From positions 32,001 to 96,000 of the IMG/VR virus record IMGVR_UViG_3300046787_000099: a stretch of DNA of 64,000 nucleotides. The stretch is one strand, 5' to 3'. Position numbers and translations under genes: made by a program. Under the pieces are notes generated by a model, which was given only the letters and a program-made list of their open reading frames with translations, was not told the origin of the DNA and searched no databases. Below, one piece after another: positions 3,001-40,939 of this stretch (positions are counted from its first letter, which is position 1; the number at the start of each line of letters is the position of its first letter). Source of the stretch: a virus.

Positions 3001-6000
3001 ACTACTGATCTTAGATACTTGATTAATCGTTGAGATTCTAGAGACTGGATATTTCCATCTCGTTGTGCATTCTCAGCAATCTTATGAATCACTTTGAAAA
3101 GAAGATTAGCTTCCTTCTCTGAGATACGTCTGTTATCAAGCTTTACATATTCATTACCCACCTTAAGAAATGCCTTAGCAATAGGGTTCTTGAATGATGA
3201 TGTTCCACCAGTTAATGTATCATTAGTTGTAGGGATAGTGATTACAGGTCCATTAGCTAATTCGTCCTCAGTAATTAATCCTGCTTCAATAGCACCAGCT
3301 CTACCATCTTGTATTTCTTTACCATTATCATCTGTTAACTTCATTGGAATACCAAATGAAGAATTGACAGGGAAAGTAGAAATCTCAGTAGATGCTATTG
3401 TGGACTTTCTCCAAGCATCGTATTGGTTTCTTAATAACTCTTTTGTTTCCTCAGGAGTAGTCTTTCTGAACATGTCAGTGCTACCACCCTTAGTGTATGC
3501 TTTACTCCACTTCAATCCTGGACCAGGCTTAACTTGAAATACAGCATTCTCTAATGCATTAGCTCCTTCAGGAATCACCTCACCATTCTTGTCAACTAAC
3601 TGAAGAGATCCATCTTCATTTTGTTGAACTAACACCATAGCAATAGTTTCCTTAGGATCTACATCCTTAGCATACTCACCGCCTTGATCTTTTAAGTATT
3701 GAGTTAGACCAGGGATAAGTTTATCCTCATTGTTGTATGTAACATATACACCACGGATCTTATCTCTGTTAGGAAAGTTATCTAAGTTAAAACCAAACTG
3801 ATTAGCTCTATCATTACCAACAATGTTATCAGAGTTGATAGTACCGTTCATCACGTTAGCATCACTCTTCTTACTATCTGGTTCTCTATCACCACCCTCA
3901 AGCAATTCTCCTTGTGTATCTAAAGATGCAACAAGTTCTGCATTAAGTGCTTCATTCTTCTTTAACTCTTCCTCTTCTTGTCTAGCTTTTTCTAGTTTCT
4001 CAAATGCAGCTTTAGCCTTCTTAGCAAAAGACTTCTCAATAGCATTCATCAACTCTGGATTATCAAACGAATTGACAACCTCTAACTTATCTACACCTTC
4101 AGCATTAGCTGCTATCTTTTGTAACTCAGTAAGTCCTTCTGCTTTCTCCACCTCAGCATCAATAACATCATTAAGAATGTCATTGATTTCTTTAGATGAG
4201 TTATCTGCTTCACTTAGTTTGTAAGCCTTGAAATCATCTGGCTTCAGGTAAGTAACAGAACCATCAGGCATCTTCACTTCAAACTCTCCACCTAATGTTG
4301 TAGCAAGAACAGTCATCTTAGGAGCAAGATATAACTGGTTGCCAATACGCATAGCAGGTTGTGATAAAGAATACTCCTTACCAATCTCTAACTCTTTACC
4401 AATAGTTTTTGTCTTACCATCCTCTTCGATGTCCTGCTTAACAATAGCAGCAGGTTGTTCAGTTACACCAATAGGTAACTCCTCTACATCTTGGTAATCT
4501 TCAGGATTGTTTTTGATCTTGTCATACTCATCGATGTATAACTTTCTACGAAGAGACATCTCCATTACATCAGATAAATTCTCTTTCAATCTATCTTTTG
4601 TCTCACTCACTACATCAAGATCATTGATCTGTGCCAATGCTTCTTTAGTAGCAGCAACATTCACCTTCTTATCTTTGATAAGAGATTGTAACACATCTGT
4701 TGTGTTAATACCACTTGCTAATAATGAGTTATTAACTTGAGGAATACGTTGGTCATAGTTGTTGATCTTTGCCATAGCATAGACCATCTTATCCATAACT
4801 GATGGATTGTAAACTGGTTTACCATTCTCATCACGTACATCTGCATATCTATCTTCAACTACAGTGTATAACTCAGCTACACTCTTTGTAAGAGCCTCTA
4901 AGTTATTAAGTCTTTCATTGAACTGAGGTCTTGTCTCATTAGGATTAACAATACCACTATTAACAAGCTCATTGAATCCTTCTTGTGTAGCAGCTTGAGT
5001 CTTGTAATATCCTAACTCTTGTGCAACAAAGTCTTCTTTACCATACTTGATGCGAGGCATTAAGTAAGATAGAGTGTAGTCATGCTCAGCATCTTTCTCT
5101 TCTAACACATCATTTGCTAAGATAGCATTCTGTCTAGCTTTCTGAGAACCAATACCAATACCTACATACTTAACTTGATCACGAAGAACATCTTGAATCT
5201 TACTGTTATTCAAAGCAGCAATAGCAATCTCTGTATTAACAGCTCTTTGTCCACCTGTTCCTAAGAACCCTCTTTCTTTAACCTCACCTCTAGCTTGTTG
5301 AATACCTCCAGAGATACCACCAATAAGCATACTCTCTAAACCTTCCTTAGTACTTAAAGCTTGATCAACACCTTCTCCAAAGATGTTTCCCATTGCTCCA
5401 TACATACCAGTAAGTAGGCTAGAAGTATCCTCTCTATTCTTGTAAGCTTTGTCAAAGAAGTTATACACACCTGTTTGAATAGCATACTGTGCTCCTTCTT
5501 CAAATGCTTCTGAAGGAGAGAATACTAAACCACCAAGATTTCTTGTAGTAACAGCAGCCTTGCCAAGAATAGTTTTAGGAGTGAATGCAGTAACTACACC
5601 ACTTACTTCTTTTTGCTCAAGCTCATTAATTAATGCTTTATCAAATCTTCTAGATGATCCTAAGATTTTAGGAAGCTGAAGATAGTTAGTTGCTGATAAC
5701 AACAAGAAGTTTGCACCTAATGTATTGTTACCCACTTGACTAGCGTAGTCATTGATGTTATCTAATTCTTCACCTTGTGGGTTTCTACCATATACTCTCT
5801 TGAACTCTTCAATAGCATTAGCTCTGAAGTTGTTCATGTTCTGAAGACTCTCAATAGAACCTTCTCCCAAAGCACCCATTGTTGAAATGGTAACACGCTC
5901 ACCATTCTTTAGAATGTTTTGTGCAAATGGATTCTTTAAATACTTCTGTGCTACAGATGTTAATGCTCCATCAAATGCTGTATATTTCTCAGCTTGAGGA

Positions 6001-6687: not shown

Positions 6688-9546
6688 TTATTGTCTATTG
6701 AAATCTGAAACTGTTAAACTCTTCATACCCATGATTACTTTTTGTAAGTCTTCATTGCCTGGAGTTTTTCTTACAATAACATTGTTATTAGGATCTTTAT
6801 AGTAGAATACTCCATAGTATTTACCATTCTCATATTTAACATTTGCTTCTAAGTCTACATTAGGTACTGATGAAAAGTTAGGGAAGTCACCTTTCTTAAA
6901 CTCAGTATCACCATTGTAATATGCTTGCTTAGTATTTGGATTACCTTGAGATGTCTTACCACCTTGTTGGCTAATCTTAGTTTTGATAATTGATGTTTGC
7001 TTAGGTTGATATAAAGAACCTGCATTAATACCAAGTCTTAACATTGCTTCATCTGGTGCAACTACCATTCCTCCTTTTCTTCCTTCATTTGGAGTAGCAG
7101 CAACAATCTCAACCATAGGTGCATTATTTTTACCTATAACAATTTGTGCTTCAACAGTACCACCTTTCTCAAAGAAATCTTTATCTGCTAATGCAGTACC
7201 AAATCCTTCAAAGTCAGGACTTAAGTTCTTACCACTAGTTGCGTAGTTACCTGCAAATCTTCTAATGTTAGAAATAGAGTTCTTATCAGTTTCTGAATCT
7301 CCTGTTAATAAAGGAAGCTTAAGATTAGGATCAATCTGATAATGATCTTTAATCACTTTAGCTTGTGTCTCATACACCTTACTTAATACTTTGCTATCTA
7401 ACTTAGGAACAATGTTTTTCAAGAATCCTAAATCTACATCAGCATATTTAGATTCTCCACCAAGTAGTTGACGACCATAATCAATAGCTGAACCAGCAAA
7501 TGATTTACCACTGCGAAGAGTTGAAGTAATAAATTGTCCAGACTGTATTAATTCTGGTCTATTAGAAGCATACTCAAGAGTATGATCTAATAAGAAGTCT
7601 AATCCTTTGTTTGCTAATCTTCTACCAGCTTCATCACCTGCTTTTCTTACACCTTCATCAATTAAGAATCCAGCAACAGATTGATTACCCTTTAAGTATA
7701 AAGCAAGATCATATTGATCTGTAGGAGTCAATGTAAATTTAGTTCCTTGATATGTTCCAGAAACAGGCTTAACGTTTGTGATAGTAGCCTCTTTCATTGC
7801 ATTCTGTCCAACAATGTTAGCTGTTGTACTTAACACATTGTTTCTCACTGTAGAAACATCTTGGAACTCTTTAGAACTATTTCTGTATATGTTAAGAGCA
7901 TCTACTAAATCAGGATTCTTTTGAAGAGTAGCAGCAGGTAGTTTCTGTATATTCTGAATACCTCTGTAAGTCCACCAAGACTTAAACTCATCCATAGTCT
8001 TTCCTGGAGGTTTAGCATTCTCAATAAGAGTTTTGATTGCTTGTGCTTTTGGAATACCATTAGCAATCAATCTATCTAACTTAGCTAACTCTGTAGTAGA
8101 ATTAGCAAACATTCCATTCCAAATAAGATTATCTTGTGCACTAGAGAATTTCTCAGCAGCACTAGTATAGTCAGTGTCTAGTTTATTGATTACACCAAAG
8201 TCAGAAGGTTGTTCACCTTGCTCAGGAACTAATCCCATACCACCAGCAGCAGGCACTAATGTATCTGGAACACCATCACCATCAGTATCAACCATTTGAC
8301 CACCTTTGCCTCCACGCATTCCTGCGATCTTCAACTGAGTTTCTTGACTACCTTTAGCAATTCTTTCAGCACTAGCTCTACCTAATGCAGCAATAGATTC
8401 TCTACTAGACATCTCTTGCTGTCTTAGTTTTATCTCATTTGCATCTTTAGTAAGCTTGTACTCAGCTTCCCAAGCTGGATTATCTACTATAGTTGTGCTA
8501 GTACGAACTGAACCATACATAGATGTCATATTCTTTATAACATCATCTGAGTATAACTTAGCTTTAGCAGCATTAGGATCAGCTGAAGCAATCTTCATAT
8601 ACTCATCGTAATGATTCTTAGTATTATCAATATCTAATTGTAACTTATCAATATCATCTTGAACATCTTCACCAGCACCTTTACGTAATGCTAGTTCCAT
8701 CATTTGATCATACTGAGTATCAAGGATCTGACCTTTTTGAGAACCTAATGATTTTGTCAATTGCTCACCATCCATACCTCTGTATGTGTAGCGACCTTCA
8801 ATACCTAGTTGTTTCTTAACTCTAGGATCAGACATAATCATACCAATGGTACCCATAACTTCTTTAGGAAGTCTTCCCTCAGCCTCAAGACGTTTCATTG
8901 CTGGAGAGTAAATAGGTCTCTTTCCAATAACACGACCTTTGTCATCAACAATAGTCTTGTATTGAACATTACCTTTAGCATCTGTTTGGAACACTTGATC
9001 AAAGGAATACTTACCAGGCTTAACAGCATCAAACTGTTCCTTAGTAAATTTCTGCCAATCAAATGCTTTAGAATACTCACCATTGAATGATGTATCTAAC
9101 TTACCATCAGATAGCCAACTATTAACCTCATCGTTGAATACAGTCTCATTTGCAGGATTATATGTTCCTGCTTTCTTATCTGCCTCCATCTCAGTCATGA
9201 AGTTTCTGATTCTTTGAGTAGAACCAACTGCACGTTGAATAGTAGGATCCTTAACAACTTGTGTAGCCATTCCTCCAACAGAGTTAACTAACTGTTGATT
9301 AGAGAAATCACCAGCAGCTACAGTGCGTAGCTTGCCACCAAGATCGTTAAGTTTAGATTGGAGATATTGCTTATGTTCAGGTTTAATAACATCTAATCCA
9401 GCTATATTATCGATATAGGCTTGAATCTTTTGTACCCCTTGATCATACTGTTGTTGCTTTTGCATACCAACAGCAACCATTGCTTCAACAGGAAGCTGTT
9501 GAATGTAAGGGTTAAAACTGGAAATAGCGTCTGTGAATGAAGCCAT
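6688..9546 (-). CDS. Virion cargo (ejection) protein
   Basis: 952-aa ORF between the tail genes and the giant protein, as in crAss-like gene order; helical N-terminus; own promoter. Confidence 0.6.
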   Translation of the reverse strand: MASFTDAISSFNPYIQQLPVEAMVAVGMQKQQQYDQGVQKIQAYIDNIAGLDVIKPEHKQYLQSKLNDLGGKLRTVAAGDFSNQQLVNSVGGMATQVVKDPTIQRAVGSTQRIRNFMTEMEADKKAGTYNPANETVFNDEVNSWLSDGKLDTSFNGEYSKAFDWQKFTKEQFDAVKPGKYSFDQVFQTDAKGNVQYKTIVDDKGRVIGKRPIYSPAMKRLEAEGRLPKEVMGTIGMIMSDPRVKKQLGIEGRYTYRGMDGEQLTKSLGSQKGQILDTQYDQMMELALRKGAGEDVQDDIDKLQLDIDNTKNHYDEYMKIASADPNAAKAKLYSDDVIKNMTSMYGSVRTSTTIVDNPAWEAEYKLTKDANEIKLRQQEMSSRESIAALGRASAERIAKGSQETQLKIAGMRGGKGGQMVDTDGDGVPDTLVPAAGGMGLVPEQGEQPSDFGVINKLDTDYTSAAEKFSSAQDNLIWNGMFANSTTELAKLDRLIANGIPKAQAIKTLIENAKPPGKTMDEFKSWWTYRGIQNIQKLPAATLQKNPDLVDALNIYRNSSKEFQDVSTVRNNVLSTTANIVGQNAMKEATITNVKPVSGTYQGTKFTLTPTDQYDLALYLKGNQSVAGFLIDEGVRKAGDEAGRRLANKGLDFLLDHTLEYASNRPELIQSGQFITSTLRSGKSFAGSAIDYGRQLLGGESKYADVDLGFLKNIVPKLDSKVLSKVYETQAKVIKDHYQIDPNLKLPLLTGDSETDKNSISNIRRFAGNYATSGKNLSPDFEGFGTALADKDFFEKGGTVEAQIVIGKNNAPMVEIVAATPNEGRKGGMVVAPDEAMLRLGINAGSLYQPKQTSIIKTKISQQGGKTSQGNPNTKQAYYNGDTEFKKGDFPNFSSVPNVDLEANVKYENGKYYGVFYYKDPNNNVIVRKTPGNEDLQKVIMGMKSLTVSDFNRQ

Positions 9547-39854: not shown

Positions 39855-39969
39855 GAATATATGTTTAGTGAGTATGAAAACACGCACGTGGAGACAGTGA
39901 TAGGTAAAAGGTGGTGTTGGATGAGTGGTTGAAATACATAATTGAGTAGAAATATATAGCAATAACAAT

Positions 39970-40224
39970 ATGATAAGAGTAGAGAGTATAGAAGTTCCTA
40001 TATATGATATGGAAGAGTTTGATACATATATAGAAGATAGACTTAATCATTATACAGTTATGTATACAGATCAATTAGATGATCCTGATGATTTCTGGGA
40101 TGATGAAGATGTTGCACATTGGCAACACATGATTACACACTATCAGAAGGTGTTATTACATCTACGTTCTACATATACAGATAAGAATGGTAGTATAAGA
40201 GAAGAGTTTCTTGATTTAATTTAA
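39970..40224 (+). CDS. Acidic hypothetical protein
   Basis: 84-aa ORF. Confidence 0.65.
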   Translation: MIRVESIEVPIYDMEEFDTYIEDRLNHYTVMYTDQLDDPDDFWDDEDVAHWQHMITHYQKVLLHLRSTYTDKNGSIREEFLDLI

Positions 40225-40229
40225 GTCTT

Positions 40230-40267
40230 TGTCCTGAGCATGACATTACACATAGTAAACTGCTCAC
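40230..40267 (+). ncRNA. Small H-type pseudoknot RNA motif, copy 1
   Basis: TGTC-CT-GAGCA-T-GACA...TAAAC-TGCTC. Confidence 0.55.
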
Positions 40268-40410
40268 ATTAATGCATCATTCTATCTTCCCAAGGGATAG
40301 CAATTGTAATACCATCAAGCTGTTTGATGTAACGTTCTTCAAATGTTAAAGCAATGGATTAACTAGTACATATATACTAGAGTTGTTACAATTGAATGCA
40401 GAGGGGATAT
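40266..40410 (+). ncRNA. Candidate twister ribozyme (P1 type) with large P5 insertion
   Basis: UAA-UGCA-UC...CUAUC-UUCCCAAGG-GAUAG-[10-bp P5]-UGCA-GAGGG follows the twister core order. Confidence 0.6.
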
Positions 40411-40421
40411 TAACACAAGTA

Positions 40422-40476
40422 CATCGTTGAAATACATGTTTGTACAAAGCATAGCATAAGTGCTGATGAAACAATG
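40422..40476 (+). ncRNA. Hammerhead-like element (degenerate)
   Basis: CAUCGUU-GAAA-UACA/UGUA...CUGAUGA-AACAAUG; lacks canonical U16.1 and a clean stem I. Confidence 0.25.
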
Positions 40477-40573
40477 CTGGTATGGGTAGACAACGATACT
40501 CACACATACATTGAGAGATGTATATTTATAAACATTTTTGTTTACATATTATTCACATACAATCAATAAAGAC

Positions 40574-40939
40574 ATGATAACTATCAAACAAGAATTACTA
40601 ACACATATACATACTATCAATATGTATAAACTACAAGAAGATAAGAATGCACACATTATAGATTGGACAATGATCTGTTGTGCTGATATCTTTATGGAGA
40701 CTGATGGGGATGATATACATGTATTTCATCGCATCAACGAAGAGTCTGAAGAACAATGGAATCAGTTCTTAAATAAGCTAGACTTTGAGCATGATGATGA
40801 ATCTTCAAGATATGCACTTAAGGGTACTGTTTGGTATGCAGATGGTACATGGTCAAAATATGGCTATGACTACGAAATGATGTATGGTTCTTGGAATTGG
40901 AGAGAGGTTCCTATGATACCTGATTATCTGCATCAATGA
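40574..40939 (+). CDS. Hypothetical phage protein
   Basis: FLNKLDFEHD...LKGTVWYADGTWS...W...P.IP motif; probable start at 40574. Confidence 0.7.
   Translation: MITIKQELLTHIHTINMYKLQEDKNAHIIDWTMICCADIFMETDGDDIHVFHRINEESEEQWNQFLNKLDFEHDDESSRYALKGTVWYADGTWSKYGYDYEMMYGSWNWREVPMIPDYLHQ

Follow-up and report, generated by a model that had tools for sequence, protein, structure and literature searches.

A candidate twister-type self-cleaving RNA with the element order of type P1 was located on the plus strand at 40262-40413 of the window, i.e. of the whole 64,000-nucleotide stretch of viral DNA analysed here. We estimate the probability that it is such an RNA, cutting the phage transcript, at roughly 0.77. 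The element comprises about 145 bases within an intergenic gap between two small genes, and the family to which it belongs is best read as a cutter that would make defined ends within phage transcripts.

The window represents bases 32001-96000 of a complete 111,973-bp IMG/VR virus with terminal repeats. The portal protein of this virus is closest to those of crAss-like phages of Bacteroidota (approximately 25% identity over the full length), and the major head protein and DNA polymerase are also recognisable. The structural genes are located on the minus strand, and the element lies about 1.4 kb inside a plus-strand module of small unknown genes which runs toward the replication genes. It is present in a single copy in this 112-kb crAss-like phage genome. 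The gap holding it is 350 nt long and is flanked by plus-strand ORFs at 39970-40224 and from approximately 40574 onward. The predicted cut (40270/40271) falls 46 nt past the stop of gene 39970-40224, the element being intergenic and in the sense orientation. No relatives of the protein encoded by the downstream gene were found in viral contigs, and BLAST of 39900-40900 against GenBank phages gave no match. Similarly, a 47-nt consensus core produced no match to GenBank phages at E ≤ 0.01, in a search that is insensitive to copies with a different P4. The features of the element are as follows.

40268-40269, plus strand: 5′ strand of P1, vestigial in the window copy (1-2 pairs), read from the sequence
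40270-40272, plus strand: L1 UAA, at the position of UAA in the Rfam twister-P1 consensus, with the predicted scissile bond U40270/A40271
40273-40277, plus strand: 5′ strand of P2, four pairs (40273-40276 with 40397-40400) plus a fifth pair U40277-A40396
40277-40278, plus strand: candidate 5′ strand of T2 (UC), able to pair with G40295 and G40294, at the site of the conserved GC in canonical twister
40282-40286, plus strand: 5′ strand of P4, pairing with 40296-40300
40287-40295, plus strand: L4, nine bases (extra U, U, CCCA of T1, A, GG of T2), one base more than the Rfam consensus loop
40289-40291, plus strand: L4 side of the T1 pseudoknot (CCC), pairing with GGG 40403-40405
40296-40300, plus strand: 3′ strand of P4, from the comparative alignment A1
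40301-40311, plus strand: 5′ strand of the P5 base, 11 bp with 40384-40394, its sequence kept family-wide
40312-40383, plus strand: P5 insert with hairpins 40313-40329, 40330-40348 and 40363-40380, from the MFE fold
40384-40394, plus strand: 3′ strand of the P5 base, from alignment A1
40395-40395, plus strand: A of the P5-P2 junction, nearly invariant (at least 90%) in alignment A1
40396-40400, plus strand: 3′ strand of P2, from alignment A1
40401-40402, plus strand: G40401 and A40402, equivalent to GA of GAGGG in the Rfam consensus
40403-40405, plus strand: 3′ side of T1 (GGG), pairing with 40289-40291
40406-40408, plus strand: 3′ strand of P1, weak, read from the sequence

A40271 is presumed to be the general acid and G40401 the catalytic guanine. 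Reading the sequence confirmed all of the twister elements that an earlier note on this DNA had listed, and added the pair U40277-A40396, which the note had left out. An L4 longer by one nucleotide (nine bases against the Rfam consensus) and a P1 of about 2 bp, both claimed in that note, were found as well; P1 can be formed by U40269-G40406 or by 40268-40269 with 40407-40408, which gives at most 1-2 pairs in the window copy. The three hairpins described within P5 were reproduced by the MFE fold, whereas the enclosing stem proved to have 11 bp (40301-40311:40384-40394) instead of 10. The MFE fold of 40260-40415 recovers P2, P4, P5 and all three hairpins, with a z-score of only −1.1. We also applied a generic twister descriptor (UAA, a P2 of 4 bp, a linker, CCCAAG enclosed by a P4 of 4 bp or more, a spacer of up to 220 nt, the P2 partner and GAGGG). 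Within both strands of the window it matched 40270-40405 alone, and it gave no match in 300 dinucleotide-preserving shuffles.

Pattern scans of IMG/VR yielded at least 134 distinct copies at no fewer than about 128 loci from viral contigs. These homologous copies with their covariation, as well as the empty shuffles, refute a chance resemblance in AT-rich intergenic DNA, an explanation with which the unexceptional fold energy of the whole stretch would agree and which we now regard as practically eliminated. The copies of the family are almost exclusively on viral contigs. In bacterial genomes, one true member was present among the first 120 pattern matches listed, and the contig carrying this lone member (104 kb, placed in the bin of an Allosphingosinicella MAG) is probably a phage, so that no host emerged from this search. 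Two loci (L001 and L002) are orthologous to the window locus, with the upstream gene at 47-55% amino-acid identity and the element at the same place. Their cores are identical to the window core except for one base, and P5 differs. P5 in L001 consists of the window-type base stem with an unrelated 35-nt loop; in L002, an unrelated 12-bp stem with an unrelated interior stands at the same place, which amounts to a complete stem swap.

For the comparative structure analysis, 105 copies were aligned (alignment A1). The search patterns fixed parts of the core and conservation is therefore inflated in those columns, whereas the results for T1, P4, P5 and the fifth P2 pair are independent of the patterns. 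In the proposed structure, 90.5% of the alignment cells were paired compared to 77.3% after shuffling, and none of 500 shuffles reached the observed value. Two-sided changes occurred at 25 of the 29 pairs, and the covariation score was 0.382, as against 0.148 in shuffled alignments and at most 0.092 when the partners were slid. The four basic pairs of P2 were paired in 100% of the copies, with one double change, and the fifth pair covaried (C-G in 86 copies, U-A in 18, unpaired in one). P4 was paired in 98%, all five of its pairs having changed on both sides, and at least 20 different P4 stem sequences were encountered across the family copies. The base of P5 covaried and was paired in 92-97%. 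P1 is short and was paired in 65% overall (82% at its first pair); it covaried as well. The analysis demonstrates the fold of P2, P4, P5 and T1; it also shows that the catalytic positions have kept their bases and that the element lies between genes on the sense strand.

The T1 pseudoknot is the decisive part of this comparative evidence. The T1 helix was paired in 100% of the copies in A1, and two of the three pairs had undergone compensating double changes. A scan which left both L4 and the 3′ strand free found CCC/GGG in 109, CAC/GUG in 12 and CCA/UGG in 10 of the 134 unique copies listed, and no mismatched combination was present among the listed copies with the usual L4 ending. Covariation among homologues, which the earlier note had expected of a genuine ribozyme, is therefore evident in P4 and T1 and in the exchanged P5 stem of L002. 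For T2, pairing of CC or UC with GG is feasible; neither strand varies appreciably, and covariation is therefore absent. In one relative (L182 10323-10477, minus strand), U and A face each other at the T2 position. The first base of the candidate T2 (U40277 in the window) also takes part in the covarying fifth pair of P2.

Twister is marked by about ten strongly conserved bases in L1 and L4, the A after the cut and the catalytic G among them. The three blocks UAA, U-CCCA-A and GA-GGG are all present in the window copy and conserved in A1; UAA is invariant there, partly because the search patterns forced it. When the 3′ end was left unconstrained (82 copies), G was found at the catalytic position in 77 copies and the following A in 79, and three of the exceptions were mis-anchored non-members. 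Two identical copies (L062 at approximately 2726, plus strand, and L190 at approximately 4850, reverse strand) have A in place of G at the catalytic position and may be inactive variants.

Twister type P1 is represented in Rfam by RF03160 of clan CL00120; the class was described by Roth et al. (2014) and reviewed in PMC5408937. Scanning the whole window with Rfam at the gathering threshold gave no twister-clan match, nor did scanning 40100-40600 at E ≤ 10, and RF03160 had no match in the whole phage genome. At both the gathering threshold and E ≤ 10, the Rfam twister models also failed to report L001, L002 and six relatives; a 171-nt stretch with a relative whose P5 has only 19 nt, scanned alone, gave no twister match even at E ≤ 10. 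The match to the twister-P1 covariance model, which had been proposed as a check, thus did not appear, short-P5 relatives included. The earlier note had named the joint lack of a model hit and of covariation as grounds for rejection; this is not what was found, because covariation among the homologues is strong despite the silence of Rfam. The twister-sister model RF02681 gave no match in the E ≤ 10 scans, and assignment to twister-sister does not fit, the element order being that of twister with L4 docking via T1. Our family model R1 scored the window element at 86.1 bits, and none of the canonical Lachnospirales twisters (L555-L560) was found with it. Type-P1 twisters from Lachnospirales genomes served as the canonical reference, and the Rfam consensus was read from their alignments. 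Since R1 and the Rfam models are mutually blind, relatedness to twister rests on layout and motif and not on a profile score.

The twister reading is supported by the layout and the conserved bases, which agree with the Rfam twister-P1 consensus as the earlier note had claimed, and by the G at the catalytic position and the GA-GGG strand, which were kept without any constraint from the search. The P5 domain agrees with it too, since twister accepts domains grafted on P5 (PMC5052635). The replacement of the GC of T2, the additional base of L4 and the nearly absent P1 count against it. So do the fifth P2 pair, which shares a base with T2, as changed P2 length may disturb the active site according to the twister review, and the failure of the Rfam twister models to report either the element or its short-P5 relatives. 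The weak P1 of the window copy is not disqualifying, because a twister without P1 was cleaved at a nearly wild-type rate, P1 being dispensable in vitro (PMC5408937). Most of these deviations could also be expected if the twister fold had been kept and cleavage lost, the RNA now being bound by a protein or forming a 5′ leader structure that stabilises or insulates: T2 and L4 deviate, P2 is lengthened, P1 of the window copy is almost gone, the Rfam models are silent, and L062 and L190 carry A for the catalytic G. Such a non-cleaving RNA is nevertheless very improbable, as the bases required for catalysis only (A after the cut and G of GAGGG) are kept across the family and compensating changes have preserved T1, the pseudoknot that builds the active site. 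An RNA selected for binding only would not be expected to keep the exact active-site bases of twister.

The window P5 spans 94 nt. Its description as unusually large is valid only in relation to canonical twisters; within the family, where the P5 domain plus junction ranges from 15 to 183 nt (median approximately 80 nt) and some copies have a P5 of only 15-25 nt, its size is ordinary. The z-score of the window insert alone was −1.5, and the inserts of the family are more folded than shuffled sequences (median z −1.07 in 119 inserts, 18% below −2). No full-length relative of the window insert was found among the approximately 650 loci compared, only hairpin 1 resembling L144, and no insert had a credible match to an Rfam family. 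At least 18 insert classes are recurrent, covering 44 of 131 elements, with 66-90% identity between scaffolds (L015/L067/L073; L019/L065/L102; L080/L156/L157/L187; L089/L165; L026/L101; L072/L184). The scaffolds sharing an insert class do not agree in P4, in the types of T1 and P2 or in their flanks, and some classes display compensating changes in their hairpins. Such sharing points to an exchange of inserts in the manner of cassettes, or to strong selection acting on them, and sequence comparison at the level of the family supports the idea of P5 as modular cargo. The separate module that the earlier note had suspected in P5 is thus supported for the family, in which classes recur across scaffolds, and stays conjectural for the window copy, whose insert has no full-length relative. 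We rejected the idea of an antisense target for the P5 insert: 24 antisense 12-mers were shared between insert and own locus, about 2.8 times the cross-locus rate, which is a weak excess, and the best match in the own genome is sense-oriented.

The recurrence of the insert classes on differing scaffolds, together with the folding of the inserts as a population, also agrees with a twister core which would serve mainly as a scaffold or switch for P5, either with P5 as a sensor gating cleavage (a natural aptazyme) or with cleavage setting free a stable small RNA that is capped by the ribozyme and has the insert as its working part. Aptamers engineered on P5 render twister ligand-dependent (Felletti et al. 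2016, PMC5052635), and the copies of a second class, with a conserved domain in L4, point in the same direction. We consider this reading unlikely, given that the window insert shares nothing but the L144 hairpin with any locus compared and that neither the Rfam searches nor the antisense counts lend weight to an active insert. Moreover, the insert appears dispensable for the role of the core, because the inserts of the orthologous loci L001 and L002 are unrelated and some P5 have only 15-25 nt. A related proposal, which is rather doubtful, is a modular ribozyme platform in which a twister-type core with a fixed P5 base (in the sister class, the L4 site) would carry exchangeable conserved RNA cassettes that either gate cleavage upon a ligand or protein signal, as natural aptazymes, or are released as stable, ribozyme-capped 5′-OH small RNAs with roles in phage-host conflict; the three-hairpin insert of the window would be one such cassette.

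Scanning for loops L4 that end in a base other than G brought up no canonical member, and a class with an insertion in L4 surfaced instead. The members of this sister class contain a conserved 110-170-nt domain in L4, exactly at the position of the extra U of the window copy, and were found in these loci.

L314 7255-7521, 7886-8180 and approximately 8395-8625, plus strand: sister-class copies with the conserved L4 domain
L006 approximately 7360-7660, and L152, L244, L258, L278, L295 and L303: further sister-class copies

The L4 domain is composed of two conserved sequence blocks and a covarying 7-9-bp stem around a variable loop, and had no match in Rfam. Both P2 and P4 form across the insertion, P2 being entirely re-paired in the third L314 copy. 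The region 7000-8700 of L314 contains one canonical and three L4-insertion copies within 1.6 kb and no ORF longer than 66 aa. Two members are fused head to tail in L048 (9205-9560, plus strand), so that the GAGG end of the first abuts the UAA of its neighbour. Clusters of two or three copies within roughly 1 kb were also observed in L019, L080, L120, L130, L143, L165, L176, L182, L186 and L193.

Two conserved neighbours flank the ribozyme in the window.

40230-40267, plus strand: compact hairpin or pseudoknot-like motif, possible pairings 40230-40233:40242-40245 and 40236-40240:40261-40265
40448-40477, plus strand: conserved 30-nt block downstream, able to form a small nested hairpin

The upstream motif ends three bases before the cut and is a neighbour of the ribozyme, not a part of it. 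It was also found at the same place in L001 (1501-1540) as well as in L317, L410 and L411, and it is apparently an independent widespread element, which occurs without the ribozyme in unrelated viral contigs. Near-identical copies of the downstream block were found 5-60 nt downstream of family members in L002 (approximately 3484-3513), L048, L143, L176 and L186, and the block had no match in Rfam. In L002, a 40-nt direct repeat (3256-3296 and 3563-3605, plus strand) flanks the ribozyme together with the downstream conserved block; this repeat may represent a promoter-like or regulatory site present twice, or an insertion footprint. Two tRNA-like genes with 31- and 39-nt insertions inside the tRNA model (L001 3340-3434 and 3516-3620, plus strand) lie downstream of the orthologous ribozyme locus, and a similar tRNA-like sequence, for which ARAGORN makes no call, starts approximately 8 nt past the ribozyme in L004 and L107. 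An association of the family with tRNAs was rejected, as a same-strand tRNA was present within 500 nt in only 3 of 145 copies.

At five loci, the cut site of a family member is preceded, at a distance of 9-10 nt, by the end of a GOLLD-like RNA.

L080 4367-4761, plus strand: GOLLD-like RNA
L102 274-671, plus strand: GOLLD-like RNA
L157 4392-4787, plus strand: GOLLD-like RNA
L187 8250-8642, plus strand: GOLLD-like RNA
L156 10361-10756, minus strand: GOLLD-like RNA

Their scores of 83-103 bits (E 1e-20 to 1e-26) are under the Rfam cut-off of 150. The ribozyme may set the 3′ end of this GOLLD-like giant RNA; no link between twister and GOLLD was found in the literature. For the family as a whole, the last 46 nt up to the cut show more structure than controls do (median z −1.34 compared to −0.48 and −0.02), 115 of the 134 listed copies are co-oriented with the local genes, and only 2 of the 134 are inside ORFs. 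The co-orientation, the structured 46 nt at the cut and the GOLLD-like ends fit a role in making defined RNA ends.

According to the proposed mechanism, P2 (five pairs) and P4 would form, CCC of L4 would dock on GGG 40403-40405 (T1), and GG of L4 would probably dock on U40277/C40278 (T2). The docking would position G40401 and A40271 about the U40270/A40271 phosphate, and this bond would be cut by internal transesterification. Of the two products, the upstream one would carry gene 39970-40224 and a 2′,3′-cyclic phosphate end just past the motif 40230-40267 as a 3′ cap, and the downstream one would start with a 5′-OH and consist of the folded ribozyme, a leader of approximately 170 nt and the gene from about 40574. 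We infer the cleavage, its site at 40270/40271 and these consequences; once cut, the two halves of a multi-gene phage transcript would no longer be coupled in stability and translation. P5 would tolerate insertions above a conserved 11-bp base, with an interior that is swapped wholesale between related phages. Processing of the transcript, as suggested in the earlier note, fits the intergenic sense setting of the element, its distance of 46 nt from the stop and the structured cap upstream, while the ‘early’ timing that the note gave to this transcript is an assumption.

Reviews still regard the biological role of twister ribozymes as open (PMC6765202, PMC5408937). The family offers hundreds of natural copies between phage genes and after structured 3′ caps, some of them 9-10 nt past a GOLLD-like RNA, and in these defined natural settings the idea of a ribozyme that makes defined RNA ends is directly testable. 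The catalogue models miss a large natural branch of twister, in which the T2/P2 junction is altered and insertions are tolerated at two sites (P5 and L4); such features matter for how much change the fold can take and for designing ribozyme switches. With a dedicated covariance model, a recurrent feature of crAss-like and other uncultured phages could be annotated. Nothing specific on twister variants of phages or crAss-like phages was found in the literature.

In the Rfam consensus, P1 is followed by UAA, a 4-bp P2, GC, a 6-bp P3, and P4 around G-U-CCCA-A-GC-C; a short A-rich linker, the P2 partner, GAGGG and the P1 partner complete the order. The phage family has the same element order as twister type P1 (P1, UAA, P2, T2 strand, P4-L4, P2 partner, GAGGG) and shares with it the U-CCCA-A core of L4 and the three Watson-Crick pairs of T1; the window copy even has the P2 sequence UGCA in common with the Lachnospirales type-P1 twisters. 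In contrast to twister type P1, the phage family has no P3, its P1 is short and often weak, and its candidate T2 would pair CC or UC with GG instead of GC with GC, the first pair being flipped. It has a covarying fifth P2 pair which is absent from twister type P1, and its L4 is longer by one base owing to the extra U between P4 and the U-CCCA core. P5 is an optional arm in twister type P1, whereas in the phage family it is always present, with the base sequence kept and the interior replaceable. Unlike catalogued twisters, the family is not seen by the Rfam twister models. On all testable counts the element appears to be twister-like, yet in terms of profiles it falls outside the catalogued family.

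Self-cleaving ribozymes (hammerhead, twister, twister-sister, pistol and hatchet) have been reported near phage genes and in multi-gene transcripts (PMC6765202, PMC10085705). Their intergenic sense-strand placing in phage gene clusters is the same as that of the present family, and transcript processing has been proposed for them and is still unproven. Those ribozymes were Rfam-detectable motifs in bacterial genomes and Mu-like prophages, whereas the members of the present family are Rfam-invisible and occur on contigs of large lytic-type crAss-like and other uncultured phages. Engineered aptazymes with aptamers on P1 or P5 likewise carry a folded extra domain on P5 of a complete core (PMC5052635), but their communication modules were designed and selected and their ligands are known, while the P5 domain of the phage family is natural and highly variable. 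Viewed against these systems, the family is apparently a large phage-only subfamily or variant of twister which has been missed by the Rfam catalogue.
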